20,454 bases of DNA from Fibrobacteria bacterium (GCA_041746255.1 JBGTHM010000082.1:1-20454); one strand, 5' to 3'; counted from the first letter of the stretch, positions 2,658 to 20,454 are shown. Notes: generated by a model not told the origin, from the sequence alone. Numbers and translations: made by a program.

Positions 2658-2934
2658 ATTTTGTACTCCCGAGACCTGCATGCAGGATATCGACCTGAAA
2701 ATATGGTGTTTTATCGGTTCTACCCTAGAGGATAGGGGAGTTGGTAGGAGAAGTCAATTTGTTGTTAACAAATTAGTTTCCTTTGAGTTTTTAAAAGGTT
2801 TTTTGAGGATAGATTGATTCCAACAATCTGAAAAATTACTTCCATAACCTAATCGGCGTTACTCTATGGGTATGGTTCCGGAATAACAGACTATGGTAAT
2901 TTCCGCTAAGGCCCTTCATAAAAGGATTTACCCA

Positions 2935-3882: not shown

Positions 3883-3943
3883 GCCGCACCGCTGTCCAAA
3901 TCTATGACGATTGCTAGATTAGCCTCCAACAGGAGACTGATGC

Positions 3944-4507: not shown

Positions 4508-5241
4508 CTCATATACATGTTTTCGGGGAGGATGCTTTGGGTTTCCTCATGCTCGAGTTCGTGGGTCATGTGAATGAAATAGGTGCGGCGCGCGCCGATG
4601 CGTTTGGCGTATGCCACCGATTGCGATAGGCATAAATGGGTGGAATGCGGTCGCATGCGCAGGCAGTCGAGCGCCAGGATATCCAGCCCCCTCATGCGCT
4701 CCAGGGTGGAATCGGGAATTACGGTGACGTCGGTGATAAGGGCGAAATCGTTGATGCGATAACCCAGAATGGGTAGCGGTCCATGGAGAACCGGTAAGGG
4801 AACGATTTTCCAATCCCCTGCGGGAATGTCGCCGGTAACCTCCCGTAAGGCGAACTGGGGAATGCCTCCGCCGTGGGGAAGGGGAGGTCGAAAGGCATAG
4901 CGATAACGGCTTTTGACATCGGCCAGGGTATGCGCATTGCCATGGATGGGAAGCGGGCCTCTGCTGCGCTGGCTGAATACCCGCAAGTCATCCATTCCCG
5001 CAGTGTGATCGGCATGGGCGTGGGTTAACAGCACATAATCGATTTCCGAAATTCCGTAGCGTAAGCTTGCCATGCGAAACTCGGGGGAGACATCGATTAG
5101 GGTCGATTGGTTGGCATCCCGAATCCATACTCCCAGTCGGTTGCGTCGGTTAAGCGGGTTGGGCGACATGCAAACGCGGCAGCGGCATCCGATGGTGGGT
5201 ATGCCATGTGAGGTTCCGGTTCCCAAAAAGGTGATTCGCAT
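4471..5241 (-). CDS. MBL-fold metallo-hydrolase, PhnP-like phosphodiesterase family
   Basis: Starts MRITFLGTGTSHGIPTIGCRCRVC (CxCxxC). HxHxDH motif THAHADH; also PVLHG, ITDV, HSTHL and FIHMTH. Start moved from 5268 to ATG 5241. Confidence 0.92.
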   Translation of the reverse strand: MRITFLGTGTSHGIPTIGCRCRVCMSPNPLNRRNRLGVWIRDANQSTLIDVSPEFRMASLRYGISEIDYVLLTHAHADHTAGMDDLRVFSQRSRGPLPIHGNAHTLADVKSRYRYAFRPPLPHGGGIPQFALREVTGDIPAGDWKIVPLPVLHGPLPILGYRINDFALITDVTVIPDSTLERMRGLDILALDCLRMRPHSTHLCLSQSVAYAKRIGARRTYFIHMTHELEHEETQSILPENMYMSYDGLELESPER

Positions 5242-5247
5242 ACAGGG

Positions 5248-5257
5248 AAAATAACAA
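5248..5257 (-). promoter_or_regulatory. Putative extended -10 element (TTGTTATTTT) 6 nt before the ATG of the MBL hydrolase
   Basis: Fits TG-n-TAnnnT. No SD between it and the start codon. Same layout as 12873-12882. Confidence 0.45.
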
Positions 5258-5373
5258 TCTTTAGGCATTCGTCTGAAGGTCGAAGATTTCCATGATCCCT
5301 GTGACGGCGGTCATGTTTATTTTCCTCGATTTATCTCTATTCCTTCCAGAATGAAAACCTTCAGGAGGGAAAT

Positions 5374-6702
5374 ATGCATGTAATTGATACGCGATCCGGT
5401 ATGGGAATTTTGCCGGGAATTATCACCGGTTTACTCTTATTTGGAACTCTAGGGCTGGTTAGCTGTAAATCAGGTAGCACCAAGGGAAATGCAATTTTAA
5501 GTCCAGGGGACGGGGGAGGAAATCGTATCCTGATTTCCCTGCGGCAATCCGGCTTGCAAGGCGAGGAAAAGCCGGCGGCCACTGAAATCGATTCCATTCA
5601 CATTTCCATTTCCGCCGAGGATATGCTTCCCATGCAATTTTCGTTTACCGGATCGGAACTTGAGGTGGAGCTTCCCGGCATACCGCCAGGCAAAGCGAGG
5701 CTTTTGCAAGCCGGTCTCTACCAGGGCGGCAGCTTGCATTATTTTGGAGAGGCGCGGCTCGATTTGTCCAAAGAGGAGCCGGCTCGCATTACCATGCCAT
5801 GCTCCCCTCGCTTCTCGCATATCTCCGGTTTTTTCCATCTGGGGCCCGGAAATCCCTACCGGGTGGCTGCGGGCAAGCTCACCTTGACCTCCGATGCATG
5901 GAAAAAGGAGGAATTACTCTCGCTGGAAGGGGAATTCGCCCGCTTCTTGTTTGAATTCGTCCCCGGAAATAAAAAATATCGACTTCGCCTGGAACTCTTT
6001 GACGCTGCGGGAGAAACGGTGCTTACCGGTGAAATGCCGGAAAGATTGCTGGAATCCGGCAAACTCGCGCGCTGGGAACTTCCGCTTTCGTCCTCCCATG
6101 CCCTTGCCGTTTTGGGGTTTACCCTGCAGGCCGCCGCACCGGTGTTGTTACAACCCCGGTTTCCCTCCCTTCGAAGACCTCCGAAGCAATATGGTGAAGT
6201 GATCTTTACGGAATTTTATGCGGCTCCCTCGGCTGCCGATTCGGGGAGCGAGGGAGAGTGGATGGAAATTCTGAACCGTGCCACCGACACTTTGGATTTA
6301 CGAGGTTGCCGGATTTCACGCGAAGGTAGTGTCTCGCCGACCAAATCCCTGCAACTCGACAGCACCTTATTTTTGGAGCCGGGGCGGGCCTATGTACTCG
6401 GGAGAAAAGCTGCTGCGAAGGCTGATAGCCGGTTTGATACTTTCGGTTTGGTCAATACACAATCCACGTTGATGCTTTTGTGCCGTTCAGACAGTCTATT
6501 GCTGGATACTTTGCATTATAATACGGTTTTGGCGGATGGAGCGCCGGGCGTGCGTATTCGTGAAGGGCGTGTTTCCACCCTGCGTCATGATAGGCTGGAA
6601 TTGCGGGAGCTTTCGGAAAATTGGTGCCATACGGCCATGGTTGCTCGGGAGGGTCTACCCGGAGCCAGTCCAGGCGAAGCCGAGTCGCATTGCCCTCGGT
6701 GA
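5374..6702 (+). CDS. Lamin-tail-domain (LTD) containing lipoprotein
   Basis: SD GGAGG; lipobox-like LVSC. LTD signature VIFTEFYAAP...EWMEILNRATDTLDLRGCRI and C-terminal GASPG. Beta-rich N-terminal region. Confidence 0.82.
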   Translation: MHVIDTRSGMGILPGIITGLLLFGTLGLVSCKSGSTKGNAILSPGDGGGNRILISLRQSGLQGEEKPAATEIDSIHISISAEDMLPMQFSFTGSELEVELPGIPPGKARLLQAGLYQGGSLHYFGEARLDLSKEEPARITMPCSPRFSHISGFFHLGPGNPYRVAAGKLTLTSDAWKKEELLSLEGEFARFLFEFVPGNKKYRLRLELFDAAGETVLTGEMPERLLESGKLARWELPLSSSHALAVLGFTLQAAAPVLLQPRFPSLRRPPKQYGEVIFTEFYAAPSAADSGSEGEWMEILNRATDTLDLRGCRISREGSVSPTKSLQLDSTLFLEPGRAYVLGRKAAAKADSRFDTFGLVNTQSTLMLLCRSDSLLLDTLHYNTVLADGAPGVRIREGRVSTLRHDRLELRELSENWCHTAMVAREGLPGASPGEAESHCPR

Positions 6703-6709
6703 GAAGGGA

Positions 6710-7528
6710 TCAGGGCGCTTCAGGAGGGCTGGAGGAGTATCCGGTGGAAGTGGAAAGAGGGTTGGCAATCAATCCCTTTTTGAAATATCCGACGGCAAAA
6801 CCGAAGATTCCGTAAATCATGATCAAACCCCAGAGGTATTCCGGAAATATCATTCCGAACCCCAGGATATACCCCACTATGACATTGGCAATTTGAAAAA
6901 GGTTGAAAGCCTTATTCTTGCGACCCATAAGCTTGGGCAGATATAACGGAGATACCATGAGCAGGCCACTGAAAATGAGCAACAGCGGGAGCGCGATTAT
7001 CAGGTCCGGCCGGGTACCCATCAGGTATTTTTCGAAGAGAATGACATTTAGGGCCATGAAGCCGCCGGCAAAAGTGGAGGGCAGACCGTGGAAATAACTG
7101 GTGAGTTCCTCCATGTCAACCGCGTTATAGCGGGCGAGGCGCATGGAAGCGCACAGCATGTATACGCCCACGGAAACCAGCATAAGGGGACGGTGCCCCA
7201 TGAACCATTGCATATTGGAAGATTGGACGTAGAAGTAAACCAGGAAGCCCGGAGCTAACCCGAATGCCACCAAGTCTGCCAGGCTGTCGAATTGGGCTCC
7301 GAAATCGCTGGAGGCTTTCAATACCTTGGCGCTGAATCCGTCGAGTTTATCGAAAAGGACGCACCAAATAATAATCCAGGCGGCCAATACCAGAGGTTGT
7401 TTACTGCTTAGAAAAACGAGGCCGGTAGTGGGTGAGAATGATTCCGCCATGATCAGAATGCTGAATATTCCCAGGAGAAAATTAAAGCTGGTGAAGAAGT
7501 TCGGAACCAGATAACGGGTTTTGGTCAA
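6710..7528 (-). CDS. pssA: CDP-alcohol phosphatidyltransferase, probable CDP-diacylglycerol--serine O-phosphatidyltransferase
   Basis: N-terminal LVPNFFT; family motif DKLDGFSAK...SDFGAQFDSLAD; MRLARYN; YFHGLPS; multiple TM segments. TTG start with AGAGGA 6 nt upstream. Confidence 0.85.
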   Translation of the reverse strand: MTKTRYLVPNFFTSFNFLLGIFSILIMAESFSPTTGLVFLSSKQPLVLAAWIIIWCVLFDKLDGFSAKVLKASSDFGAQFDSLADLVAFGLAPGFLVYFYVQSSNMQWFMGHRPLMLVSVGVYMLCASMRLARYNAVDMEELTSYFHGLPSTFAGGFMALNVILFEKYLMGTRPDLIIALPLLLIFSGLLMVSPLYLPKLMGRKNKAFNLFQIANVIVGYILGFGMIFPEYLWGLIMIYGIFGFAVGYFKKGLIANPLSTSTGYSSSPPEAP

Positions 7529-7631: not shown

Positions 7632-10217
7632 TCATGGTGGAGGAAAACATAAAATGAAAGGGTCCAGAGTGCTCACGCAAACCTGATTTCCGGAATAAAC
7701 CGGACTGCCCGGTATATGCGGCAAAGGATACTTCACCTGGAGTATGTGACCATAACTGCGTTTTTCCAGCGCCGGCTCGGTCGTGCCGACCCAATATCCA
7801 TCCGGCGCCGTAAGCGGTTTATGAAACAGATGGGAATCCAAAGTCCGCCTCGACATGATCGCCCCGGTGGCGGCCTCCATGACAATCAGTTTTTTGGATG
7901 CGGTGGTGGCCATCAATATTTCGTTGCCGTTACCGGAAAGACTCAATATCTGCTCCCCAAAATCCCGGGTCCATAGGACGGTGCGTCGGAGGCGATCCAG
8001 GGCGGCTACGGTTCCCTGGCTATATCCCGTAAAGACCGTAGTGCGCGTGGCATAGGTTTCGGTAATGGTGCCCTCGGGCAGAGGAACGCTCCAAATTACC
8101 AGTCCGGAATTCGGATTCACCGAATGAAAGCGGCCGTCAATATCCACGATGTCGAGGGCGGTCGTTATTCCGGGTGGGAGGATGAGCAAACCATTTTCTC
8201 CCAACTTCCGTTTCCAAAGGATACTGCCTTGGGAGTAGTCGATGAGAGACAGTCCGCCTTTCCAGTCGCTGTAGAGCATGCCTTGGGAAAGCCCTCGGCT
8301 TTCGCATACAGGGTTTTCCAGGGAGACCTGCGTGGTTTGCGCTGGATGGATTCCCGGTTTAAGAATGTAGAGCCGCGATTGGCTACTCACCATCAAGGTA
8401 TCGCTTTTGAACGAGGCGATTTTCATATCGAGGTCTTCGGAGAAGTGGAAAGCATTGCGCATTTCGCCGTGAGCGGGATCCAAAAATACCAGGGTGCGGT
8501 TGTCGTTTTCCAAATAGAAGAGTCCTCCGGATCCGCTGAAAAGCGGCGGTTGGATTTCCGGACCGTATTGACGCTTCCACATCCATTTCGCTCCCAGTTT
8601 TGCGGCGAGTTTCGCCGGTAATCCATCCACAGTCCATGTGGGAGTCAGGGTGGAACGAGCCGCATGTTCCAGGCTGCGCACTGCATCCGGTCCTGAAATT
8701 CCCGACGCTTCCTGAATCTGGTGACGTAATCTCCAGGCGGCCCCATTTCCGGGTTCAAGGTTCAAAATTCTTCCGACCTCCAACAATCCTTCCCGCCAAT
8801 TTTTTTGGTCAAGGTGCTCTCGGAGAGTCCGGAAAGCCATATCCGGTAAGGACGCCGCCAGGCGCAGTAAATCCGGGTCGAGGCGAACCCGTTTGCCATC
8901 ATGGAAATGTACGGTGATATGGGATTTGGCTGGGAGCACAGTCATTTCCTCATCCCACCCGAATTCGTAAGTCCAGAGTACCCGGCCGGCAGAGTCGGCG
9001 GAAACCAGGGTTTTCGAGAAGGTTTTCAGCAACAATTCCCTTCCGTAAGGAATGAGCAACCTCGCCTGGAAATCCTTTTGCCATTCCAATTCACCCGTTC
9101 TTGCATCATAGGCTTTCACCACCCCTTGCGGAGTAAGCAGGTAAAGCCTATCCTCCCCCATATAAATGCGGTTCAGGAAGGTGGAGGTCAGGCTCCAGGC
9201 GATATCTCCGAAATCTTTACCCCGGCGCACTTCGATCCGCTCGGGATATCTCAACACCAGAGCTCCGTCGCTCAGAGTGAGCCCCAGCACCTGCGAGGGA
9301 ATCCCGGCGATAGGCTGAATTTGGCGGCGCGCCGGATCGACACGGAAGATTCCGCCTTCCGGACAATGCAATATCCCGGTGACCGGGGCTATGGACCCGG
9401 TATGCCAGGCGCATCCTGGTGAGGCCAATGGGATTTCCCAAACGGGCCGCCGAGCGGAATGATATTGCAAATGGGCGGCGTAAACCAGAACGACGGACCC
9501 CTCGTCTCCATCTACAATTACGGCCTGTTCCAGATGATCGGATAGGGTTATCTGCCAGTTTCGGGAAGCCTCGGTGGAACGGAAATGGAGACTTTGCTCT
9601 TCCGGAATCCGTACCAGCAGGGCGTTCCGGGCGGCATCCACCAGCTCCTCTTTGGGTGAAAGCGGCAGCGTGGAGGGGTTCAGGTTCCCATGGGCATCCT
9701 GAGAGGCGAAGCGTCGATTTCCGTCCATTTCGGGGTTTCGGGAAAAGTCCAAACCAAAGCCGCCGTTTCCCTGCGCATGGAAAGGAAACACTTTGGGCGC
9801 ACCCGGGGGGGCGGACCTATCCAAGGCCATAGGGGAGAGCTGGGCAGGATCCAGTGCCAGTAGCCTTCGGTGGAGTCTCTCCTTTTCCACCGGCAGTAGA
9901 TCGGTGCTTTTCAAAGAGGCCTTATAGTGGTCGATGGCCTGTTGGCTGTGTCCCGTGCTCTCGCGGATATGTCCGAGAATAAGATTCGCCCTCGCGAGGA
10001 TTGCTTCGTCCCGCGATTCAGACAATAGCCGTTCGAGCAGGTTCGAGGCTTCGGAAAAATTGGCTTCTATATCGTAGAGATATCGGGCTTTCTCGAGGGC
10101 CTGCAACTGTGCATGCGGATCGGTCGTAGCTGGCTGGCCCCATGTTGGTGGGAACACCATTCCGGATAACAGAATGAGGCCAATCACGATAAAGGTGTGA
10201 TGTGGGTAGCTGTTCAT
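7632..10217 (-). CDS. Secreted TPR plus PQQ-like (BamB-type) beta-propeller repeat protein
   Basis: Signal peptide. TPR-like helices (ARANLILGHIRE..AIDHYKASL; ILNLEPGNGAAW). Two blocks of Trp-docking repeats (AYDARTGELEWQK, SVNPNSGLVIWSV, ALDRLRRTVLWTR). Start overlaps the regulator stop (ATGA). Confidence 0.82.
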   Translation of the reverse strand: MNSYPHHTFIVIGLILLSGMVFPPTWGQPATTDPHAQLQALEKARYLYDIEANFSEASNLLERLLSESRDEAILARANLILGHIRESTGHSQQAIDHYKASLKSTDLLPVEKERLHRRLLALDPAQLSPMALDRSAPPGAPKVFPFHAQGNGGFGLDFSRNPEMDGNRRFASQDAHGNLNPSTLPLSPKEELVDAARNALLVRIPEEQSLHFRSTEASRNWQITLSDHLEQAVIVDGDEGSVVLVYAAHLQYHSARRPVWEIPLASPGCAWHTGSIAPVTGILHCPEGGIFRVDPARRQIQPIAGIPSQVLGLTLSDGALVLRYPERIEVRRGKDFGDIAWSLTSTFLNRIYMGEDRLYLLTPQGVVKAYDARTGELEWQKDFQARLLIPYGRELLLKTFSKTLVSADSAGRVLWTYEFGWDEEMTVLPAKSHITVHFHDGKRVRLDPDLLRLAASLPDMAFRTLREHLDQKNWREGLLEVGRILNLEPGNGAAWRLRHQIQEASGISGPDAVRSLEHAARSTLTPTWTVDGLPAKLAAKLGAKWMWKRQYGPEIQPPLFSGSGGLFYLENDNRTLVFLDPAHGEMRNAFHFSEDLDMKIASFKSDTLMVSSQSRLYILKPGIHPAQTTQVSLENPVCESRGLSQGMLYSDWKGGLSLIDYSQGSILWKRKLGENGLLILPPGITTALDIVDIDGRFHSVNPNSGLVIWSVPLPEGTITETYATRTTVFTGYSQGTVAALDRLRRTVLWTRDFGEQILSLSGNGNEILMATTASKKLIVMEAATGAIMSRRTLDSHLFHKPLTAPDGYWVGTTEPALEKRSYGHILQVKYPLPHIPGSPVYSGNQVCVSTLDPFILCFPPP

Positions 10218-10912
10218 GCGCGAGGGTCGAATTTGTAGCCTACTCCCCGCACACTTTTGATGATGGTGGGGTTGGCCAGGTCTTGCTCTATTTTTTGACG
10301 AAGTTTTACGATTTGGTTGTCCACAGTACGCGTGGTAGGCATATTTTCCACGGAATAGCCCCAGATGTTTTGGAGTAAATCTTCGCGGGAAACCACTTCC
10401 CCCCTGTGTTGATTGAAATACCGCATAATCTGGTATTCCTTGGGTGTCAATTCGAGGGGTTGTCCTTTTTTCTCGGCTTCGTAGCGCTTGAAATCCAAAC
10501 GGATGCCATCGAACTCGAGGATGTCGGCGGGCGGGGGAGCGGCCTTGTCGTCCAGGCGACGCAGCATGCTTTTTACCCGGGCCATTAGCTCGAAAACGCT
10601 GAAAGGTTTAGTGACGTAATCGTCCGCCCCCATTTCCAATCCGGCGATTTTGTTAATCTCCTCGGTTTTGGCGGTCAGCATAAGTATGAATACCTTCGGG
10701 TGGCTTTTGCGTATATACCGGCAAACATCATAGCCACTTTTTTTGGGGAGCATCAGGTCGAGAATGACCAGGTGTGGTCGCCAATCATCCACTTTAGTGA
10801 GCGCGATTTCACCGTCCTCGGCTGTTTCAACCTGGAAACCTTCCATTTCCAGCAGGTCGACCAGTCCCAGGCGTATCGCTTCTTCGTCTTCGACTACGAG
10901 AATTTTATGCAC
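10214..10912 (-). CDS. OmpR/PhoB-family response regulator
   Basis: ILVVEDE; phospho-acceptor LVILDLMLP; MLTAK; GADDYVTKPF; winged helix TRTVDNQIVKLRQKIE..SVRGVGYKF. GTG start. Confidence 0.96.
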   Translation of the reverse strand: MHKILVVEDEEAIRLGLVDLLEMEGFQVETAEDGEIALTKVDDWRPHLVILDLMLPKKSGYDVCRYIRKSHPKVFILMLTAKTEEINKIAGLEMGADDYVTKPFSVFELMARVKSMLRRLDDKAAPPPADILEFDGIRLDFKRYEAEKKGQPLELTPKEYQIMRYFNQHRGEVVSREDLLQNIWGYSVENMPTTRTVDNQIVKLRQKIEQDLANPTIIKSVRGVGYKFDPRA

Positions 10913-12866
10913 TTTTCATTTTCCCCTTGGCGAAGGTGATAACCATTTCGGTGCCTTCGTCCAGCTTGCTGTTCACCCGGATTTCGGCGTGATGCGCATC
11001 CAGGATCTGCTTGACGATAGCCAATCCCAATCCGCTGCCTTTGGTTTTGCGGGTCATTTCGTCTCCCCCACGATAAAATTTATCGAATATATGCTTTTGA
11101 TCCGCTCCGGATATGCCGATACCCTGGTCTTTGACGCTAAGCTGAATCTGGTCCGGTTGGTTTTGCAGGGTGACGGTAACCGTGCCTACGGAGCGGGAAT
11201 ATTTCAAGGCATTTTCAAGCAGATTCTGGACCACGGAGCGTAGGGCATCCCGATCCCCATTGACGGTAGCGTCCGGATCCAGCTTTTGCATCAGGGTGAT
11301 TCCCGCCTTTTCGAAAGCCCCCGCCATCAGTCCCGCAACTTCCTGTACCACGGTGGTGAGGTTGACGGGAGTGAAATCCCATTGAGCCCGCTTTTCCTCC
11401 AGACGGGTGAAATTGAGTATATCCTCTATCATGGCATGGAGCCGCATGCTTTCCTCGCCAATCATTTGCGCATAACGTTTTCGCTTCGCCTCGGCGGGTT
11501 GTTTGCCGCTTTCCAAAATTTCCGCGAACATGCGGATGGAAGTGAGCGGAGTCTTGAGTTCATGCGAAACCGCCGAAAGGAAATTCGTTTTCATGCGTAC
11601 CGTGCGTTTTTCATTGCGTAATCCCAGGAACAGGGAAATCGACCCCAGTAGAAGAGCGATAAGGGAAAAAGCCAGCAAAGTATAGAGCAGCGTCAGTTTC
11701 CGCCTTCCCAGGGCGGCGACTTCGCTTTCCTTTTTTTTGAAAACGGCTACTTTCCAAGCGGGAAACTCACGATCGAGCGTTTTTTCAAGAGCCAACTCAC
11801 GCCCCGCTACCGATTCGGAACTGAGTAGGAGGCGTTCGGCCTGGTTGTAAATGCTGAATTCGACGTCCTTCCAGGGCCCTTTTTGCGGTAAGAGTATTTC
11901 CGCCCTCACCGCTTCCGAAAATACCGTTTCGTTCAGTCGCGCAATGATGTGGGTTTCCTTTTCGAGCCAGGGGTAACCGATAACGATATAGGGAAGCCCT
12001 TCGAAATAACTGAGTTGAATGGGATGGAGGGCGTCGAGTTCACCGAAGCGAAGCAATCGATCGGGATTCACCCGCCATTCCTCCGCGATGTATTGGGCGT
12101 TGACGAGAAAAATTTGCGAGCGCTGATAAATGGACCACAGATAATCGCGAGTTTCGCGGGGAAGGTTTTCCATGGATGTCAGTAGCGAAATGGTTTCCGC
12201 TAAATAGAAATGCAATTGGTGGTAACTGATGAAGGCGTCACTATCGAGAATATCCCGGATAAAATCCAGTCCCGAGTTCACCGCTTCTTCGCCCAGGCCC
12301 AGTCGCATCAACGATTTGATTTCCAGGAGCCGTAACCCGTGGGCGAGCGGGGTTCCCAGGGGGCTGGAAACCCTCAGGTGAGGCGGTAACGGATTGGCGC
12401 GCATGAGCCGTATGCTATTCGCATAGCGGCCCGCGCGGAATTCCTCCTGGACGGCGCGTAACCGATTGGAGTTCCAAGCGGATGGAATGGCTCCGGGGTC
12501 ATTTCCCAGATTGGGTTTGAAAGGACGTAACTGACGGGGAAATACACGCTTCTCGCTTTCGTAAATCACCAGCGATTGGATTAGGGGGTTTTCGAGCAAG
12601 TCGGTGGCGAGAAACAGGTGGTTATCCCCCGAAGCTTCGGCGCCGGCGCGTCTCAGCTGCTCTTGCAGTTTGGTCAGGTGGGATTCCTTGGTTTTCTCCA
12701 GCAGTCTTTGCAGATCCTCCACAAATTCCTCGTTTTGCAATTCCAGGGATCGCTCAATGAGGATGCGTTCATCTTTGATGGTGCGGAAGCTCAGATAGGC
12801 GAGGAGTAATCCCGGCACCATAATGCTCAGCAGAAAAACGATGAGAAGCCGTTTGGGCAGATTCAC
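10905..12866 (-). CDS. Membrane sensor histidine kinase (HisKA/HATPase_c)
   Basis: Two TM segments around a ~360 aa extracytoplasmic region. H-box SHELKTPL, N-box NLLENALKYS, G1 DQGIGI, F-box IFDKFYR, G2 GSGLGL. Confidence 0.95.
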   Translation of the reverse strand: MNLPKRLLIVFLLSIMVPGLLLAYLSFRTIKDERILIERSLELQNEEFVEDLQRLLEKTKESHLTKLQEQLRRAGAEASGDNHLFLATDLLENPLIQSLVIYESEKRVFPRQLRPFKPNLGNDPGAIPSAWNSNRLRAVQEEFRAGRYANSIRLMRANPLPPHLRVSSPLGTPLAHGLRLLEIKSLMRLGLGEEAVNSGLDFIRDILDSDAFISYHQLHFYLAETISLLTSMENLPRETRDYLWSIYQRSQIFLVNAQYIAEEWRVNPDRLLRFGELDALHPIQLSYFEGLPYIVIGYPWLEKETHIIARLNETVFSEAVRAEILLPQKGPWKDVEFSIYNQAERLLLSSESVAGRELALEKTLDREFPAWKVAVFKKKESEVAALGRRKLTLLYTLLAFSLIALLLGSISLFLGLRNEKRTVRMKTNFLSAVSHELKTPLTSIRMFAEILESGKQPAEAKRKRYAQMIGEESMRLHAMIEDILNFTRLEEKRAQWDFTPVNLTTVVQEVAGLMAGAFEKAGITLMQKLDPDATVNGDRDALRSVVQNLLENALKYSRSVGTVTVTLQNQPDQIQLSVKDQGIGISGADQKHIFDKFYRGGDEMTRKTKGSGLGLAIVKQILDAHHAEIRVNSKLDEGTEMVITFAKGKMKSA

Positions 12867-12872
12867 CGGTAG

Positions 12873-12882
12873 AAATTAACAA
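12873..12882 (-). promoter_or_regulatory. Putative extended -10 element (TTGTTAATTT) 6 nt before the kinase GTG start
   Basis: Fits TG-n-TAnnnT. No SD. Same spacing as 5248-5257. Confidence 0.45.
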
Positions 12883-12914
12883 ATTGGGAGAGGGGCAGCC
12901 TGGGGACGCCGATC

Positions 12915-13151
12915 TTAGAAAAGCAGCCTTTCCAGGGCCAGAAGCACATTTTCTCCGATACGGGCATAAATCATCTGGCGCAGATAGGGGAATTCATAGA
13001 TCTCGAAGCAAAGCAATACGGTGATAAGCACGATAAACACAACGAAAAAACTGATGATGTAATACAAGAAGAAAAAGACTACAGCCCGAGGCTCCAGAGT
13101 GCGGGGATCGATGCAGAGCCGGTAGAGAAAGGCGGCAAGATTTCCTGTCAT
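12915..13151 (-). CDS. Small single-pass membrane protein (78 aa), hypothetical
   Basis: Fills the gap between co-oriented genes, starting 15 nt after the upstream stop. Strongly hydrophobic stretch VVFFFLYYIISFFVVFIVLITVLLCF. Confidence 0.55.
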   Translation of the reverse strand: MTGNLAAFLYRLCIDPRTLEPRAVVFFFLYYIISFFVVFIVLITVLLCFEIYEFPYLRQMIYARIGENVLLALERLLF

Positions 13152-13166
13152 GGAATGGGAATAGTA

Positions 13167-14138
13167 TCAAGGCATGGCCGACCCTGCAAGCGATTCCATC
13201 GGCGCCCTTACCCAATCACCGGCCTGTAGCTTACCCGGGTATACCTCATTCACAAATACCGATGCCCAATTTTCGCCCATTTCGATAATGATGCCTCGGG
13301 CAATCCGGGAAGTGCCCAAGGTTTGGGATTTTACCTTGTTCATTATTTCGATGCGATCTCCGGCCCGAAATCCGGTACCCTCTCCGCCGTCGACGATCAT
13401 GAAAGTATACGGTTGGGCCAAGTTTTGATATTGGGAAACTTGCACGATATACCCCAATTTAGAATCGCCGGAAACTTCGGGTTTCCGCAGCGGTAGTATT
13501 TTCGGATGGATAAGCGGGCAGGCGCGCGCGGCAGTCGAAATGGTGCCGAAACTGCGGACCAATCTTCCCTGGGAGGCCTTATCCTGCACATTCGTTATCT
13601 CGATTATACCCTTGGTTTCTAACAGACGTCCCAATCCGCGGCCTTGCTTGTGGTTTCTGACAACCGGACCCATTTCGTAAATGCGGAAGAGATCGCCCGG
13701 CTTGACACCGCTGCTGGCGCCCGTGGCAAGACGGATGACATCGTTAAGCTGAATCACTTCAGAGCGGTTTTGATTTTCGTACCGTATCCGTGTCTCACCG
13801 GGAAGATATTTCCCTTCCTTGGGAATCGCTATGACCGGCGCGGTCAGCATGAATTCAGCCGAGAGCTCTTGTGGGTATCCTTCGGCCGCGCGCAAAATAG
13901 CGAGATTCTCCCTTTCCCCATGAGCCTCAACGGAATCCGGCAGAATAATACCCGCGCGCTCGGCCAAAGGGCCGACTCGGGTCAGGAAGCGATCCTTTCT
14001 TTGCTGTTCGGATTTAAGCCAAGCTTCGAGGCGGGGATTGGATTCCCCCTGAGCATATAAGAATACGCCCCCTCCACATCCCAAGGCACCGGCTAGGGTC
14101 AGCGTCATAAAACAGCGATTGCGGATAGAATTCATCAT
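13167..14138 (-). CDS. Secreted protein resembling the C-terminal part of TsaP/LysM-family proteins, with no LysM domain seen
   Basis: Signal-like N-terminus from MMNSIRNR (ATG 14138 or 14135). Two similar beta-rich repeats, GASSGVKPGDLFRIY..GIIEIT and GEGTGFRAGDRIEIM..GIIIEM..GDWV. Family assignment is from motif recall. Confidence 0.6.
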   Translation of the reverse strand: MMNSIRNRCFMTLTLAGALGCGGGVFLYAQGESNPRLEAWLKSEQQRKDRFLTRVGPLAERAGIILPDSVEAHGERENLAILRAAEGYPQELSAEFMLTAPVIAIPKEGKYLPGETRIRYENQNRSEVIQLNDVIRLATGASSGVKPGDLFRIYEMGPVVRNHKQGRGLGRLLETKGIIEITNVQDKASQGRLVRSFGTISTAARACPLIHPKILPLRKPEVSGDSKLGYIVQVSQYQNLAQPYTFMIVDGGEGTGFRAGDRIEIMNKVKSQTLGTSRIARGIIIEMGENWASVFVNEVYPGKLQAGDWVRAPMESLAGSAMP

Positions 14139-14363
14139 AATCCAATCACCCTGCCCCAGGACACCCTGAAGCACATGAAAGTTTCCCCTATGATGCCGCT
14201 TTTCAGGGGGGAAAACAAGGTTTGTGAAGCAAAATGAGTCTAAACCGACTTTTTTAGCGCTTTTCCGGGTTCGTTGTTGGACTCATTTTCCAACGGTTTG
14301 CCGAATAGCCTGTTAAATGGGCAAGTGGCGGGATTCACGGATAGGCTAAATCCTTAAAAATAA

Positions 14364-14391
14364 GTGACTTAGCTCCTCCACCCCTTATAAT
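14364..14391 (+). promoter_or_regulatory. Putative sigma70 promoter of the HTH/barrel/TPR operon
   Basis: GTGACT (14364-14369), 16-nt spacer, perfect TATAAT (14386-14391). SD GAGGAG at 14415-14420. Confidence 0.55.
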
Positions 14392-14426: not shown

Positions 14427-14681
14427 GTGTTCACACTTAACGGAAACATCGATCCACAATATCGCACCAGCGGTCAAGTGGCCAAGATGCTGCGCATCTC
14501 GGTCTCTACGCTGAAGCGCTGGCTGGAAGACCAGCCGGACCTGGCAACCAATCGCACCAATTCTTCTGGTTGGCGACTTTTCACCGACGACGAGGTGAAA
14601 AAGATCCACGAGTTTCAAAAGTTCAGACGCAAGCTCGGAAAGTCGTTCAAGCCTTCGACCCTGAGACCCATTGATGAATAA
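14427..14681 (+). CDS. Stand-alone MerR-type HTH DNA-binding protein (BldC/Xis-like), 84 aa
   Basis: TSGQVAKMLRISVSTLKRW..RTNSSGWRLFTDDEV is a MerR HTH plus wing. No effector domain. GTG start with strong SD. Confidence 0.88.
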   Translation: MFTLNGNIDPQYRTSGQVAKMLRISVSTLKRWLEDQPDLATNRTNSSGWRLFTDDEVKKIHEFQKFRRKLGKSFKPSTLRPIDE

Positions 14682-15861
14682 ACGCCTTCTCCTAGTCGTA
14701 TCGCTGGCCTTGGGCTGGCAGTCGGTTATGGCGGTTCCCAAGCGATCGCGTGCGGAAGCCGTGCCTGGGATGGAAACGTCCAATACCGTCGCCTTGGGAG
14801 ATATCTGGCTCGAAGCCGGCTTTTCGTCGCAATTCCAAACCCGCATCCTATCCGAAGAATTTTTGGCGGCCACAGTAGACTCAACCTACCGCCAGGATTT
14901 CATCGGACTAACGGGTGGAGGAGGACGTCTCAATAGGGAGGTGGTGTTGTATCCCCGACTGGGAGCGATTATCGGGCTCGGGCATTTTCTGCATATTCAA
15001 TTGAATTCAATTCCTTGGGACGGAAGCAAAATCGGCGCTTCGTCAGCCCAAATGAAAATCACCTCCCCAGGAAACGACAACCTGCGCCTTTTCGGCATCG
15101 GCGCCTCAGTGGGAGCGGTTTTTACCACGGAAGAAAATTCCATGACCCGCCATCAAACCACGCCCGGCTTCGATCCCTTTGCCTTTGGGGCGCTTATGAT
15201 CGACCTGGATTTGATCAAGCTGGTTCCCGATTATCCCTTCAAGATGTATTTCAACTATTTCAGCCTGGACGAACAAAGGCTGGCCCATTCTTACCGACAG
15301 CACTCTTTCAAAGCGGCTTTCGAATATAAAGGGTATAAACGCAGTTATTATCTCCGCGGAAATTTCGCGCTCTACAAACCGAAAAGCGTCGCCGTCGCCT
15401 CGAAGGATTGGGAAGGCGGGTATCGTTCCGCCAGCGCAGTGGGTTTCGGCTTTCGCAAGTCGATGGGCGAACGCTTTTCCATGGCCGGAGAGCTTTCCTT
15501 CGATCCTTATCGGCCTATGTCGTTTTATCGCAGCGAATTTTCCAAACCTCCCCGGATTTCCCTGGACTTTACGGTTCCCTTGCTTCACAAAGAAAGCCGC
15601 ACGGAAGCCTTGCGAGCTCTCATTTTTCATGAACACCTGCGCAAGTCGATGCGGAGTCAGGGATCGGTCGCGGGAAAAGCGGATGCAAGTCGCGACAATC
15701 CGGAAACGGGAGAGGAATGGGAAAAATTGATGCAGGACTCCGCCGTAGACGTGGAGAACCGTAACGCTTTCGAGGGGTTGTTCGGTAACGAGGAGGAGAT
15801 GAGGGAGAGGCGAAGAAAAATCCGGGATGAATTGAAAGAAATCGAGGAATTGTTGGAATGA
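14674..15861 (+). CDS. Secreted hypothetical protein, predicted outer-membrane beta-barrel with charged C-terminal tail (paralog 1)
   Basis: Signal peptide MNKRLLLVVSLALGWQSVMA. Alternating aromatic/Gly strands (SFKAAFEYKG, GFGFRK, FSMAGELSF). E/R-rich helical C-terminus. ATG overlaps the HTH stop. Confidence 0.75.
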   Translation: MNKRLLLVVSLALGWQSVMAVPKRSRAEAVPGMETSNTVALGDIWLEAGFSSQFQTRILSEEFLAATVDSTYRQDFIGLTGGGGRLNREVVLYPRLGAIIGLGHFLHIQLNSIPWDGSKIGASSAQMKITSPGNDNLRLFGIGASVGAVFTTEENSMTRHQTTPGFDPFAFGALMIDLDLIKLVPDYPFKMYFNYFSLDEQRLAHSYRQHSFKAAFEYKGYKRSYYLRGNFALYKPKSVAVASKDWEGGYRSASAVGFGFRKSMGERFSMAGELSFDPYRPMSFYRSEFSKPPRISLDFTVPLLHKESRTEALRALIFHEHLRKSMRSQGSVAGKADASRDNPETGEEWEKLMQDSAVDVENRNAFEGLFGNEEEMRERRRKIRDELKEIEELLE

Positions 15862-17201
15862 ACTTTTTGACGGACCGATCCGGAAGGCCGACCCGCTCCT
15901 GTGAGCGGTGGTTTTCCGTATTGTCCCTCCCCTTGGGGGGGAGTTTCCGTCGCTTCCATCTTTTGATGACGGGTCTCATCGGGTTGCTCCTGCTTTCCCC
16001 CCTCTATGGAGATGAAGATGGAGTGCGGCGTGTCCGGCATGAAGGGCTGCACGCTTCCCAGTCCTCCTCCACCGCGGGCCAGGGAAATTTGCATATGGTC
16101 GGTTTTGGGAGAAGTTTTCTATGGGACAATAACGCTGCAACCCGCATCCCTCCTACGCTCCCTAATTTGGAAGCCATTTATGGTATTTATGATTTTCTCG
16201 ACGTGGCGGCGGGAAGCCGGGTTCTCAGTTATGGACTGCAACCCGGAAGCGCATACATGCGTCTGAAGGCCACCACGCCGAATAACAAAAAGCTCCGGCT
16301 TTTTGGAGTCGGCCAAAGTTTGGAGTTCAGCCGTAACCTGATGACTTTTTTCCCCTCGAACGGATATCGCATCCATAACGAAGGGTTTGGGCCGGAGGGG
16401 TTCAATTTCGGTAGCGACGCCCTCTTAACCGGCTTCAAGGCCATGACCGCCCTGGATTTCGAATTCATCAATATTTCTTCGTACTTGCCTTTCAAGTTGT
16501 ATGTGAATATGGGGTGGGAGACTGGCTTGGGCTCCTGGATTGCCGACAGTAATGCGCAAATCGCCAAAAAGCCCAATGGTAGAATGGGTACGGATAATTT
16601 TTCCAAAATGCCCTTCTCACTGGGACTGGAAGTGAAAACCTATTCCACCGATTTTTTCGTGGAATTAGAGGGCGACCCTTTCACCGTGAACATGCTTCCC
16701 ATGCTCGGCAAGTGGGTCGGACTATCGGAGGGAAACCCCTGGCAACGTTTCCAGGTAGGTAATAAATCGTTCGACATGCATTTCGTGGAAAATCCCTTTT
16801 ATCTGCATGCGGGTTCCCGCTTGAAATACGGCAACGGCTTGACCATGCTGGGAGGATTTTCCTGGTTATTGAGCAGTGAACGTGGCGCGGATTTCGGGCC
16901 TTGCCACATTCGCGACAACCCCTGCCAGGATAGAAACGTAACAGACGGTTACAATCCATTCTATCCACAGTGGAAATTATTCGGAGGGTTGCAATATCCG
17001 ATTCGCTTCACGCAGCCTTCGAGCGAACTCTACCGTTCGTTCCTCCTTAAGCGTTATCAGTCGCGGCGGAAAATTGTAGACATCGAAAAAGCCTTGGAGG
17101 ATACCCGGCAGGATACGGAGCAAATCGACGGAATGGAAAGGCGTCGAATTCTGGAAGAGCGGCGCAAGCAGGCGGAGGAGAGCGATGTCGAGCTCAATTA
17201 A
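15858..17201 (+). CDS. Secreted hypothetical protein, predicted outer-membrane beta-barrel with charged C-terminal tail (paralog 2)
   Basis: ATGA overlap with paralog 1. Hydrophobic LLMTGLIGLLLLSPLYG. Amphipathic strands (FSLGLEVK, FFVELEG, WKLFGGLQYP). Motifs shared with paralog 1. The true start could be further downstream. Confidence 0.75.
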   Translation: MNFLTDRSGRPTRSCERWFSVLSLPLGGSFRRFHLLMTGLIGLLLLSPLYGDEDGVRRVRHEGLHASQSSSTAGQGNLHMVGFGRSFLWDNNAATRIPPTLPNLEAIYGIYDFLDVAAGSRVLSYGLQPGSAYMRLKATTPNNKKLRLFGVGQSLEFSRNLMTFFPSNGYRIHNEGFGPEGFNFGSDALLTGFKAMTALDFEFINISSYLPFKLYVNMGWETGLGSWIADSNAQIAKKPNGRMGTDNFSKMPFSLGLEVKTYSTDFFVELEGDPFTVNMLPMLGKWVGLSEGNPWQRFQVGNKSFDMHFVENPFYLHAGSRLKYGNGLTMLGGFSWLLSSERGADFGPCHIRDNPCQDRNVTDGYNPFYPQWKLFGGLQYPIRFTQPSSELYRSFLLKRYQSRRKIVDIEKALEDTRQDTEQIDGMERRRILEERRKQAEESDVELN

Positions 17202-20200
17202 AATATCCGTTCTGCTAATCGCCGCGGCGATTTTTCCGGCCTACCCGCAAGCGCCGGAAGGGGGGGACCGTTGGAGGCAGGCGGACCAAATCCTAGACCG
17301 GCTGCAAGAGGAAAAACGGACTCTGGTGATTATTGAGGAGGAGGTTGGACGACTGAAATTTCTGGCCGAGGATTTGCGCGGACTACAGCTTTATCCTTCC
17401 GAAGTGACGCGGCTTCGAGGTGAAGATGAGATCTGGTTGGACAAACGGATTGAGAGGCTGGAACGCAATCATGCGGCGGCTCTCCAATTCGTAGAGGAGG
17501 GCAAACGTCCGCTTGGCGAGGCCTTGTCCATAACGCGGGAGATGCTCCGAATCGAGCCGAATGCCGATATGATTGAAATCCTCAGAAAGGACAATATTTC
17601 CAGGGCGGAGAGATTGCTGAAAACCCAGAAGCGCCTGAACGGATATTGGGACGAGGCTTCGGGCATTTTGGAATCTCTCTGGACCCGATCCGGTTTTGCC
17701 GCCGACAAGGTCGAAAACCAACTATTCGACCAAACCTTCCTGAAAGTTTTGATGTCGAATCTGGGACGGGCATCGGAACGCTTCTACGTCTCCTTCAATG
17801 ACTACAAGGACTCGCTGGTCGTTCGCAGCGAAACCAAAAACTGGGCCCGCATGGCAAAAATCGATTTGGACAGGCTTGAGCAACGCCTGGGTTCCGTCAA
17901 CGCGGAATGGGTGGAATCCGAATTGGCGAGTCTCTCCGGTCGCTTTCATGGAAAAATCGCCATCGGAGCCATTCATTATCACCTGGCCCGCAGTTATTTC
18001 CTCGCGAAAAAACCGTTGCAGTCTACGAGGATGTTTCAGGAAATCGCTGCCGACAGCCGATTCTATGGACCCAGCCGCCTGGGAATTCTACAGGGCTTTT
18101 TTGAGGCCAAACTGGATGATTCGGTTGTAGTCCATTATCGAGAAATGGTGGAAAGGAATCAATTGAGCGCGACTGATTTGGCCTCGGCGCGCTACCTGGT
18201 CGTGCAATCGTATTACGCGTTGGGAGCGGACTCACTGATTGCGCCGGAAATTTTGCTTTCCAACCAAAAGGATGCCTATCACCATAAAGGGTTGCTGGTA
18301 TACGCAAAATCCCTGGTACGCCAAAGCCGCTTTACCGAAGCGCGCAAGGTCTTGGAAGGCCTGGTTTCGCAGGCGCAGCTCCCGCAAAAATTTCAAGGGC
18401 AGATTCGCATGATGCTGGCGCACCTCAATTATGAAGAAGGCTTGTTCTCCCATGCTCTCCGCGGTTACACCGCCCTGTTGGAATGGAGTGGATTCCAGTC
18501 AGAAGCGCTTTACGGAATGGTATGGTGCAGCATCCGTTTGCAGGATTTGGATGGCGCCGAATTCATTCTCAAGAAGTTGATTTCGCAATATCCCGATCAT
18601 ACCTGGGCCTTGGATGGATTCCTGGTGCTTATTCGTCGCATCGCATTGAAGTCCGCGGAGGAATGGGAATTCTTGCTGCAGGTGGAAGAGGGAAGGGAAC
18701 GTCTGGAGCAAAGCCGCAAGAAATTGGAACAGCGTCTAAAGGACGGCCTGCTACCTGAAGCGCTGGCCGGAAAAGTCCGGGAACAATTAGTGAAAATGGA
18801 AGAGCAATTGAGCCGACACAAGCCCATGCGCGCGGAGCAGATCGGCGCGCTTTACCGGCAAGCGGTGGGTCTTTGTGAATTCATCGAACAGAGATACCGG
18901 TCGGGAGAATACTCCGAAGTTGTTTACAGTGACGAGCGGGAAAAAATGCTATGGCGTCTCGAACGGGTGGCCGGTGCTCAGACGACCCTGAATTTTGAAA
19001 ATCTGGACGGAAGCGAGGAGTGGTCGAATAACCGCCCGGTTTTCCGTAAGAAACTGTTCGAAAGCCGTGCCCTGGCCATGGATTTGCAGGTCAGGCAAAA
19101 GGCCTGGCTAAAGGATTATCTGATCTATTCCCAAAAAAAGCTAAGCGCCCTCAATCAAAGTATCACCGGAGATACCCCAGAGAGCTTGCGCCAGAAAAAA
19201 AACCTGGAAAGCCAGGCTTATCGATTGGCTGACGACATTTCCGAGCGGCTGGTTCGCAAAGGCGAGCGGATATTGAGCCAAATCGACAAGATTTCCGCAA
19301 CCACCCATGCGGGGCCCTTTGTGGATTGGATGTTATTCCAAAGCGGAATGCAACGTTACGACTTGGAAGAGCATGAGTTGCGAAAGCGTTGGATGTCCTT
19401 TCAATGGCTGAACCAGCAAAACGATGGAAATGACGTGTTTCCCGAACCTTCCATTCGCTTCCTGGAGTATGAGGCCCCCTGGAATTTGCTGGTTGAATCC
19501 TATCCGGAATCTCCGCATGCGCCCGCGGCCCTCTATTACCTGGGTTTTTCCAAAACCGGCCGGGGAAACTCCCTGGAGGGACTGAAACATTTCCAAGAGT
19601 TGGCCGAGAAATATCCGGAATCGCCCTATACCCATCAAGCCTTGATTTTCATAGGCGAACATTATTTCAACCAAAACCAATTGGCGGAGGCCGAACGCGC
19701 TTACGACCGGGTTCTCGATTATCCCGAGTCCAAATATTTCGAGCAGGCTTTGTATAAACTGGCCTGGACCCGGTATCGCCTGAATTCCTATAAAGGCGCC
19801 ATCAGTTCCTTTACCTACATACTCGAAGAAGCCGCCGGCAACCGGAATCCGGCCAAGAAATCCGTTCTGACCGCCGAAGCCTTGCAATTCGCGGCCCTTA
19901 GTATGGCTGAAAGCGACACCACGGGAGACGGCGGTCTGGCGCAGACGAAGGCATTTGCCGATAAATTGGGGGACACCAAGCTGGGGGCCCAACTCATCCA
20001 CCGCATGGCCATCATTTACGCCCAACAGGGCCGGTTGGATCGCGCCAGCCAGGCGGTGGAAACCCTGATGAAAAACTACGAACACTATGAGCGGCATTTC
20101 GAGGTTGCGATGGAACTGGCCCGTGCCTACGACAGGGAAAAGAAATTCGAAGCCGCCACCGATGTACGCATGAAGGTCTTCCGACGGGTGAATCCCCGTT

Positions 20201-20454
20201 CGGAATGGCGCGCGCGGCAAACCGATCCGGAGGTTATTGCCGATGCGGACGCGGCTTGCCGCCAAGCCATGGAGGAGGTCGCCATGCACTATCTGTGGCA
20301 GGCAAAACAGATCAAGGAAAGCGGCGGATCGCATGAACAGGAGAAAATGAACCTATTCAAAGCCGTGTCCGCTTATGAAAACCTTTTAAGTGCCTATCCC
20401 GAAGATGAGCAGCGATCAAAGTACGGCTACAACCAAGCCGAAGCCTATTATGCC
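17185..20454 (+). CDS. Giant secreted tetratricopeptide-repeat protein, >=1090 aa, truncated at its 3' end by the window edge
   Basis: Translated by hand. ATG 17185 overlaps the upstream gene by 17 nt; frame runs to the window end. Signal MSSSIKISVLLIAAAIFPAYPQ. TPRs include EALYGMVWCSIRLQDLDGAEFILKKLISQYPD, YPESPHAPAALYYLG, YPESPYTHQALIFIGEHYF and YFEQALYKLAWTRYRLNSYKGAISSF. Confidence 0.9.
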   Translation, partial: MSSSIKISVLLIAAAIFPAYPQAPEGGDRWRQADQILDRLQEEKRTLVIIEEEVGRLKFLAEDLRGLQLYPSEVTRLRGEDEIWLDKRIERLERNHAAALQFVEEGKRPLGEALSITREMLRIEPNADMIEILRKDNISRAERLLKTQKRLNGYWDEASGILESLWTRSGFAADKVENQLFDQTFLKVLMSNLGRASERFYVSFNDYKDSLVVRSETKNWARMAKIDLDRLEQRLGSVNAEWVESELASLSGRFHGKIAIGAIHYHLARSYFLAKKPLQSTRMFQEIAADSRFYGPSRLGILQGFFEAKLDDSVVVHYREMVERNQLSATDLASARYLVVQSYYALGADSLIAPEILLSNQKDAYHHKGLLVYAKSLVRQSRFTEARKVLEGLVSQAQLPQKFQGQIRMMLAHLNYEEGLFSHALRGYTALLEWSGFQSEALYGMVWCSIRLQDLDGAEFILKKLISQYPDHTWALDGFLVLIRRIALKSAEEWEFLLQVEEGRERLEQSRKKLEQRLKDGLLPEALAGKVREQLVKMEEQLSRHKPMRAEQIGALYRQAVGLCEFIEQRYRSGEYSEVVYSDEREKMLWRLERVAGAQTTLNFENLDGSEEWSNNRPVFRKKLFESRALAMDLQVRQKAWLKDYLIYSQKKLSALNQSITGDTPESLRQKKNLESQAYRLADDISERLVRKGERILSQIDKISATTHAGPFVDWMLFQSGMQRYDLEEHELRKRWMSFQWLNQQNDGNDVFPEPSIRFLEYEAPWNLLVESYPESPHAPAALYYLGFSKTGRGNSLEGLKHFQELAEKYPESPYTHQALIFIGEHYFNQNQLAEAERAYDRVLDYPESKYFEQALYKLAWTRYRLNSYKGAISSFTYILEEAAGNRNPAKKSVLTAEALQFAALSMAESDTTGDGGLAQTKAFADKLGDTKLGAQLIHRMAIIYAQQGRLDRASQAVETLMKNYEHYERHFEVAMELARAYDREKKFEAATDVRMKVFRRVNPRSEWRARQTDPEVIADADAACRQAMEEVAMHYLWQAKQIKESGGSHEQEKMNLFKAVSAYENLLSAYPEDEQRSKYGYNQAEAYYA

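Follow-up and report, generated by a model that had tools for sequence, protein, structure and literature searches.

The window analysed here, a stretch of 20,454 nucleotides (nt) of DNA from a Fibrobacteria bacterium, ends within an operon that we lean towards reading as the outer-membrane (OM) and periplasmic module of a proton-motive-force-driven machine of the Agl-Glt/Nfs-core type, with its motor encoded elsewhere in the window's clade and with a surface polymer or an adhesion complex as its probable cargo. In Fibrobacterota the operon is composed, in order, of a gene for a MerR-type helix-turn-helix (HTH) protein, two genes for paralogous predicted OM barrels (barrel 1 and barrel 2), two genes for giant tetratricopeptide-repeat (TPR) proteins (TPR1 and the probable lipoprotein TPR2) and a gene for a small exported protein. 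What carries this reading is the conservation of these genes, the models of the barrels, the linkage of the block to motor genes in distant relatives, the GltG-type tail of a protein linked there, and the colinear homology of the two TPR proteins with a single TPR protein of Gammaproteobacteria. The functional statements made below are drawn from gene context and models.

The original prediction had described a four-gene operon encoding a small DNA-binding protein, two paralogous exported proteins and an exported TPR protein of at least 1090 amino acids (aa). Reading of the open reading frames (ORFs) bears out four + strand genes with successive overlaps of 8, 4 and 17 nt (Table 1), and these junctions are widely kept in relatives. 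Among the 15 relatives that hold all four genes, the HTH/barrel 1 junction is an 8-nt overlap in 11, a 4-nt overlap in 3 and a 3-nt gap in 1; the barrel 1/barrel 2 junction is a 4-nt ATGA overlap in 13; and an in-frame start gives a 26-nt overlap between barrel 2 and TPR1 in 12. The first protein matches Pfam MerR_1 above its cut-off (see below), the middle two are paralogous (pairwise BLASTP E = 8e-9 over 116 aa), and the fourth, a giant exported helical protein, matches several Pfam TPR families, its gene being still open at the window end. The genes and their order stand as described; the end of the operon does not, as it runs on beyond the TPR gene.

The relatives were obtained in one scan of species-representative genomes with the TPR1 alignment, in which 79 pattern matches led to 25 confirmed loci: 20 from a close clade (L001-L020), 3 from distant Fibrobacterota (L021, labelled 'Fibrobacteres', and L022 and L023, labelled Chitinispirillaceae, class Chitinispirillia) and 2 from Gammaproteobacteria (L024 and L025). 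When gene order is surveyed by tblastn, HTH, barrel 1, barrel 2 and TPR1 follow each other in 15/15 loci (13 close, 2 distant) whose DNA extends sufficiently upstream, and barrel 2 lies directly 5' of TPR1 in all 20 loci with any upstream DNA. The organism-named relatives of barrel 2, and most of those of TPR1, come from metagenome-assembled genomes (MAGs) labelled Fibrobacteres, Fibrobacteria or Fibrobacterota, at ~50% identity, and the window DNA looks like Fibrobacterota. The junction of barrel 2 with TPR1 is also present on three contigs of 3-4 kb (L001, L016 and L019), labelled Bifidobacteriales, Verrucomicrobiales or 'uncultured bacterium'. Of the relatives found, L001 is the nearest to the window (70-74% identity); L016 and L019 are at 46-53%, and all three are probably mis-binned Fibrobacterota contigs.

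As full-length relatives of TPR1 measure 1116-1227 aa (42-49% identity; one partial relative has 978 aa), the window lacks the last ~60 residues of this protein (1090 of about 1150). In 19/19 loci extending beyond TPR1, the gene of TPR2 (910-1012 aa) begins at the TPR1 stop. The TPR2 alignment holds an invariant cysteine in a lipobox-like context, and TPR2 is therefore probably a lipoprotein. It is followed, in all 15 close loci extending beyond it and in 3/3 distant ones, by a small exported protein, conserved in its GKV(E/D)KPxV motif, next to which a further exported protein of ~240 aa is found in 6 close loci. Export of the proteins was judged by eye from their N-termini, without a signal-peptide program.

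The paralogy of the two barrel proteins is real and full-length, because their family profiles align over 331 columns (probability 99.85%, E = 1.3e-30), N-terminal motif and C-terminal tail included. Whether they model as OM barrels, a point on which the original prediction had staked its reading, is answered in the affirmative by AlphaFold2 and Foldseek. The model of barrel 1 (33 sequences; pLDDT, a predicted score of the local distance difference test, 79.6; predicted template-modelling score, pTM, 0.72) has 12 strands followed by long helices, and its best Foldseek matches in the PDB are FapF (E = 7.7e-7, template-modelling score, TM, by target 0.49-0.59), NanC (0.64) and OmpG. The model of barrel 2 (21 sequences; pLDDT 73.6, pTM 0.69), with a pLDDT above 60 in just 2/5 models, matches NanC (E = 1.7e-6, TM by target 0.70) and FapF. 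For both proteins, the PDB matches are outer-membrane barrels only, led by FapF, NanC and OmpG at E ~1e-6 and TM 0.5-0.7. Both paralogs are predicted in this way to be ~12-stranded OM barrels with charged helical C-terminal tails (44-45% charged residues; 44% in barrel 1). An even number of strands in an OM barrel leaves both termini in the periplasm, so that the N-terminal motif and the C-terminal tail would be periplasmic. According to these models, two adjacent paralogous OM barrels stand beside a TPR gene, as in the Glt platform. The predicted complex of barrel 1 (22-395) with barrel 2 (55-447), using their own alignments, scored 0.14 for a mark of 0.32 and counts neither way as to their binding.

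The barrel 1 family is small: 1.84 billion proteins yield 58 representatives at E<=0.001, and a further profile search (8000 best candidates scored) gave 16 proteins annotated at most as 'hypothetical protein'. Barrel 2 has 70 relatives at E<=0.001, of which all source-named ones are hypothetical proteins and all organism-named ones come from Fibrobacterota MAGs. The fold of both barrel models resembles that of the 12-14-stranded channels FapF, NanC, OmpG and COG4313/PF13557. They nevertheless differ from these by the absence of any Pfam (PF13557 included) or NCBIfam match at E up to 1, by an identity of 6-12%, and by being paired and provided with a conserved, C-terminal helical extension. 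A TonB-dependent receptor or transporter was rejected as an identity of the barrels, which have ~12 strands vs 22, no plug and no TonB-dependent receptor Pfam match. A porin of the BcsC/PgaA/AlgK-AlgE/Wzp type (16-18 strands) was also rejected, the barrels being ~12-stranded and the window and close loci holding no synthase or outer-membrane polysaccharide export (OPX) gene; BcsC comes just at rank 35 for barrel 1 in Foldseek (E = 2.2e-4, TM 0.27-0.30).

The resemblance of the barrels to NanC, FapF, OmpG, Tsx and the COG4313 channel feeds the main rival explanation, which we regard as unlikely: a motor-independent, passive OM conduit, in which the barrels would be channels for polysaccharide export, partnering as porins an OPX protein that has no pore, or for the uptake of oligosaccharides (cellodextrin, chito-oligomer) and the TPR proteins would be scaffolds. 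The ESM Atlas clusters nearest to barrel 2 carry PF13557 (score 0.96, a lead only), no motor is linked in the window's clade, and an unidentified barrel has been postulated for TonB-linked cellodextrin uptake in F. succinogenes (PMC6851124). The OPX protein encoded in the distant loci (see below) has Poly_export and SLBB domains only, a class that cannot span the OM and needs a separate barrel porin (PMC9603273, PMC12819527), but the known partner porins are 18-stranded and PgaA-like rather than 12-stranded pairs (PMC9603273). A simple channel, furthermore, needs neither conserved helical tails nor two giant TPR scaffolds; the barrel-TPR block is contiguous with motor genes in 3/3 distant loci; and no OPX, synthase or sugar-utilisation gene is linked to it in the close clade.

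This contiguity concerns L021, L022 and L023, where the block runs directly into motor and polysaccharide-export genes, in the order MotA/ExbB, ExbD, STAS, ExbD, TonB_C (~345 aa), Poly_export/SLBB, Wzc-like and family-2 glycosyltransferase (in L023, ExbB and the first ExbD were read from translations and confirmed by tblastn). The Poly_export/SLBB protein, which is Wza-like, measures 304-305 aa and is without a pore domain, and the Wzc-like protein has GNVR and P-loop (AAA_31) domains. The TonB-like protein of L021 (347 aa) passes the NCBIfam model of the AgmX/PglI (GltG/GltJ) C-terminal domain (NF033768; 90.6 bits, cut-off 40). It also aligns to the GltG model over positions 322-648 of 650 (E = 1.9e-27), its score, for lack of the cytoplasmic FHA part, staying far short of the equivalog cut-off of 650. 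The ExbB protein of L021 resembles that of the gammaproteobacterial L025 (38.6% identity), and the motor proteins of both loci are alike. A STAS gene lies between the two ExbD genes (L021 17778-18104, L022 14115-14489, L023 7916-8290), and one of the same BLAST family is found 4-5 kb 3' of the operon in at least 5 close loci, beside gcvT in L010 and L015. We know of no description of a STAS gene within aglRQS.

The nature of this motor also bears on two further explanations. A Tol-Pal/CpoB-like system of envelope integrity or cell division is very improbable. The best named NCBIfam and PDB matches of TPR1 and TPR2 are indeed YbgF/CpoB, and the L021 ExbB protein scores best on the TolQ model. 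All these matches are, however, below the equivalog cut-offs (65.6 vs 90.1 bits; 66.9 vs 221 bits), TolA, TolB and Pal are absent from every locus, the TonB-like protein carries an AgmX/PglI tail, and twin barrels and 1000-aa scaffolds are foreign to Tol-Pal. An accessory of type IX secretion or OM assembly, with TPR2 as a PorW/SprE- or BamD-like lipoprotein and the barrels as PorV/PorP-like shuttles, is quite improbable as well. The use of type IX secretion has been ascribed to F. succinogenes (PMC6851124), TPR2 weakly matches T9SS_PorW_SprE (30.8 bits vs cut-off 250) and PorE, the TPR proteins weakly match BamD, and Foldseek lists the translocon chains 8gl6_F and 6h3i_F for barrel 2 (E ~7e-5 to 1e-4, TM by target 0.36-0.37). 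The TPR matches are nevertheless far below cut-off and cover TPR units only, the translocon chains rank below NanC and FapF, and the distant loci encode no GldLM/PorLM-type motor but one of the ExbBD/TolQR type, together with a GltG-type tail.

The Agl-Glt/Nfs-core reading is further supported by comparison with the 'core complex', defined as gltC, gltD, gltE, gltG and aglRQS and found clustered in Gammaproteobacteria, Geobacter and F. succinogenes (Fisuc_1892-1897). Its presence outside gliding bacteria, including Fibrobacter, was published in 2011, its function there being given as unknown; gltA and gltB were reported in Myxococcales and Bdellovibrionales only and, in the view of Luciano et al., motility is not driven by the core complex on its own (PMC3169522). 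The core cluster of Marinobacter aquaeolei encodes TPR proteins of 648, 952 and 189 aa, then proteins of 235, 170, 166 and 324 aa, the last one being the GltG homolog (PMC3169522, Table S3). L025 encodes TPR proteins of 673, 932 and 173 aa, ExbB, two ExbD and a 315-aa protein with an AgmX/PglI tail, and thereby matches this cluster in order and sizes. In its 932-aa protein, residues 99-475 align with columns 777-1157 of the TPR1 profile (hhalign probability 99%, E = 2.9e-18), and residues 479-919 with columns 87-557 of the TPR2 profile (probability 98.4%, E = 7.3e-15). TPR1 from residue ~760 onward is thus homologous to the N-terminal half of the gammaproteobacterial TPR protein in GltD position (HMMER, 72.5 bits). 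The same specific, colinear TPR1/TPR2 pattern is obtained by HMMER in L025 and L024, cross-matches being weak. Because of this colinearity, the GltD-position protein corresponds to the end of TPR1 joined to the start of TPR2, by a split or by a fusion. The 673-aa TPR protein of L025 is matched by neither profile (probabilities 4.5% for TPR1 and 8.2% for TPR2) and weakly matches the NCBIfam GltC model (E = 3.8e-4). The C-terminal 440 residues of TPR2 (residues ~560-1000; L006 13389-16391), outside the part homologous to the gammaproteobacterial protein, are tryptophan-rich, and no family, PDB or Atlas match explains them (best ESM Atlas score 0.89, all TPR clusters, a lead only).

The likeness to the core complex holds in three respects: the phylum is that of F. 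succinogenes, the distant loci bring TPR, ExbB, ExbD, ExbD and TonB-like genes together in one region, and TPR1 and TPR2 are colinear with the GltD-position protein of a core-like locus. The published F. succinogenes set comprises TPR proteins of 746 and 1292 aa with motor genes (PMC3169522). Strain S85 shows, on cellulose, a rise in FSU_2396-2398, which are two TPR proteins and one of the OmpA family, and in FSU_2400-2403, the ExbB/ExbD/ExbD/TonB genes (PMC6851124). This cluster differs from the operon by its OmpA-family gene at the adjacent tag FSU_2396, and no twin barrels or HTH protein are reported for it (PMC6851124, PMC3169522).

GltA and GltB of M. xanthus are barrels that depend on each other and to which the TPR protein GltC binds, and GltD forms the central pillar in the periplasm, bound by GltG and GltJ through their TonB-like domains (PMC11761067, PMC9946355). 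The genes nfsA-H form a single cluster, in that order, and Nfs together with AglRQS moves the Wza-exported Exo polymer around the spore (PMC3858216). The operon resembles Agl-Glt and Agl-Nfs by its adjacent paralogous OM barrels, predicted as such, with large TPR proteins and a small exported one behind them, and, in the distant relatives only, by the TolQ/ExbB-like protein, two ExbD-like proteins and the TonB-like protein with its AgmX/PglI tail that come after the block. The probable lipoprotein TPR2 is a further likeness to Agl-Glt, where mature GltD and GltE begin with Cys1 (PMC11761067), and the linkage of the distant loci to a Wza/Wzc-type pathway is one to Agl-Nfs, Nfs being functionally linked to Exo (PMC3858216). 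The differences from Agl-Glt are the following: (i) the GltD-type region is spread here over two genes, (ii) the MerR-type gene (in the operon) and the STAS gene belong to the array, (iii) the GltG-like protein is without an FHA domain and GltH, GltI, GltJ and GltK are absent, and (iv) the motor is unlinked in the window's clade.

Several results weigh against the Agl-Glt/Nfs-core reading. TPR matches are repeat-prone, and the best named ones, to CpoB/YbgF and BamD, are all below cut-offs; PDB sequence searches with the TPR1 and TPR2 profiles likewise return generic TPR, CpoB and BamD entries only. The 932-aa protein of L025 is taken for a GltD homolog from its matching architecture. The Glt models of NCBIfam matched neither the barrels nor TPR1 or TPR2, and no barrel homolog is found by profile comparison in the two gammaproteobacterial loci, a 529-aa protein included. 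The barrels are also larger (395 and 447 aa) than GltA (256 aa) and GltB (275 aa) (PMC3169522), for which C-terminal helices are not described. Finally, ExbB, ExbD, TonB-like, Wza-like and Wzc-like genes are absent, by tblastn (E<=1e-4) and by BLAST families, from the window and from the 20 close-clade loci. Motor genes are linked in 0/15 close loci extending past TPR2 (by 0.2-7 kb), and the DNA after the operon carries in the close clade the STAS gene and genes such as iPGM, a methyltransferase, gcvT and ftsK, of a housekeeping kind. Neither a TolQ/ExbB gene with two TolR/ExbD genes nor a GltG-type TonB-like protein is thus found in the window or in close loci.

The original prediction, which had suggested a Glt-like envelope machine for motility, secretion or uptake in a non-myxobacterial lineage, fares unevenly. 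Of the three outcomes that it had named as speaking against it, none came about. It is right that the window has no motor genes, and the energiser genes that it proposed to look for downstream are linked to the block, as MotA/ExbB, two ExbD and TonB_C, in the 3/3 distant loci, though neither in the window nor in the 20 close-clade ones. Its caution that the link to Glt is architectural only no longer applies, since a linked TonB-like protein of the distant loci passes the AgmX/PglI model and the TPR pair is colinear with the GltD-position protein. A Glt-like machine is favoured by the barrels, the gene order and the distant motor linkage, and disfavoured by the lack of Glt model matches and of a motor in the close clade. 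Its place outside myxobacteria holds for Fibrobacterota, although an occurrence in Fibrobacter had already been published in 2011 (PMC3169522). The motility part is not supported, as nothing points to gliding in particular.

A true gliding machine of Fibrobacterota, equivalent to Agl-Glt, is indeed highly improbable. The gene order, with two barrels, two TPR proteins, a small protein and a TonB-like protein, runs parallel to nfsA-H and gltA-H (PMC3858216), and the window encodes a VWA-domain protein of at least 893 aa, a VWA protein being the Glt adhesin CglB (PMC9946355). The VWA gene is however 11.7 kb off the operon, no homologs of the cytoplasmic platform are seen, the 347-aa GltG-like protein covers model positions 322-648 only, without FHA, and the core complex alone is argued not to drive motility (PMC3169522).

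Under the Agl-Glt/Nfs-core reading, two paralogous ~12-stranded barrels would sit in the OM, with their N-terminal motifs and charged helical tails facing the periplasm, where the tails could dock on the TPR1/TPR2 scaffolds. A TolQR/ExbBD-type proton motor of the inner membrane would drive the scaffolds through a GltG-type TonB-like protein. Its genes are contiguous with the block in Chitinispirillaceae-type relatives and would lie elsewhere in the genome in the window's clade, where the coupling to a motor is itself presumed. The cargo would more likely be a surface polymer or an adhesion complex than a gliding apparatus, in a way that recalls Agl-Nfs acting on the Wza-exported spore-coat polymer. 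One bolder possibility, which we consider doubtful, is that Fibrobacterota carry a complete, non-myxobacterial Agl-Nfs/Glt conveyor, in which the motor and a GltG-like arm act via a split GltD-type scaffold on the barrel pair and thereby displace or arrange a surface polysaccharide of the Wzx/Wzy type, or else a complex for adhesion to insoluble substrates. The barrels could then have been recruited independently of GltA/GltB or could be unrecognised ancient homologs of them. Were this so, twin barrels would have been joined to a Tol-like motor either long ago or more than once, and what the core complex does could be tested outside Myxococcus.

One and the same operon unites, across Fibrobacterota, the TPR part of such a system with sister barrels of a small, unnamed family, a MerR-type protein and an exported protein of small size. 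Within one branch, polysaccharide-export genes directly adjoin the whole array, motor included, so that both a candidate for the missing OM part of the core complex and an idea of its cargo are at hand, and a split or fusion of a GltD-type scaffold is documented. The operon might also provide a handle on the TPR, OM and ExbBD/TonB proteins that proteomics ties to cellulose adhesion in F. succinogenes. The helical-tailed twin barrels, the split scaffold and the coupled MerR-type gene appear to be new, none of them having been found described in a literature search, in which no paper on the barrel family or on the operon was found either (the listed results of one query were without the word Fibrobacterota).

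Table 1. Positions of the features of the window (nt) and architecture of the two barrel proteins (residues)
Feature	Position	Strand	Remarks
VWA-domain protein	3-2681	-	at least 893 aa, cut by the window start
Divergent upstream cluster	7632-14174	-	five genes, 335, 78, 653, 232 and 861 aa
Promoter-like site (putative)	14364-14391	+	GTGACT-16-TATAAT, 10/12 sigma-70 consensus positions (consensus scan)
TTAG	14369-14372	+	conserved, inside the promoter-like site
C-rich block CCTCCACCCC	14375-14384	+	just 5' of the -10-like hexamer (14386-14391)
HTH gene (MerR-type, 84 aa)	14427-14681	+	GTG start; gene 1
Barrel 1 gene (395 aa)	14674-15861	+	ATG start; TTG also at 14671
Barrel 2 gene (447 aa)	15858-17201	+	ATGA start
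TPR1 gene	17185-20454	+	1090 aa to the window end, no stop
Barrel 1 architecture (predicted)			signal peptide, conserved periplasmic N-terminal motif, 12 strands (44-304), charged helical tail (309-394)
Barrel 2 architecture (predicted)			long N-region, hydrophobic segment, barrel (78-383), charged helical tail (389-441)

The HTH gene is the first of the block in 15/15 loci (46-66% identity). Its product matches MerR_1 (PF13411) over residues 14-75 with 36.3 bits for a cut-off of 21.6, and corresponds to the DNA-binding part of MerR only, no C-terminal dimerisation helix or effector-binding region being present in its 84 aa. In having the MerR helix-turn-helix alone, without an effector domain, it is like the small MerR proteins of the BldC type, but it scores 16.9 bits on their model, whose cut-off is 77, and is therefore not a BldC member by this test. 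Upstream of this gene, the original prediction had placed a single promoter. A promoter-like block is indeed conserved there, the -10-like TAnnAT and the preceding C-rich block being invariant or nearly so in 14/14 aligned upstream regions, although sigma-70-like sites are not commoner in the region than in shuffled sequences (2 found vs 4.5 expected). The site has a putative promoter or operator function. TTAG and the C-rich block are almost invariant among these 14 upstream regions, which are otherwise divergent, and may serve the MerR-type protein as an operator or form a promoter element specific to the lineage. The MerR-type protein, encoded by the first and translationally coupled gene, would probably autoregulate the operon at this block. 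No part of the window matches Rfam at gathering score.

The divergent cluster upstream of the operon encodes a lipoprotein-like protein of 335 aa, weakly matching FlgT_C below cut-off, a membrane protein of 78 aa, a 653-aa histidine kinase, a 232-aa response regulator of the OmpR type and a protein of 861 aa with a BamB/PQQ-like propeller. Wherever close-clade loci extend to it, this cluster adjoins the operon, but it does not do so in L021-L023; it may regulate the operon or act with it. Farther upstream, the window holds at 2893-7528 further envelope-related genes, which encode two lipoprotein-like proteins, one of 329 aa and one of 442 aa that has a lamin-tail domain, RmlC (dTDP-4-dehydrorhamnose 3,5-epimerase), a protein of the metallo-beta-lactamase fold and a PssA-like CDP-alcohol phosphatidyltransferase (below cut-off). 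On the other side of the operon, L013 encodes at 16707-23222 a protein of more than 2172 aa with 12 passenger-associated transport (PATR) repeats, which suggest a giant autotransporter-like surface protein.

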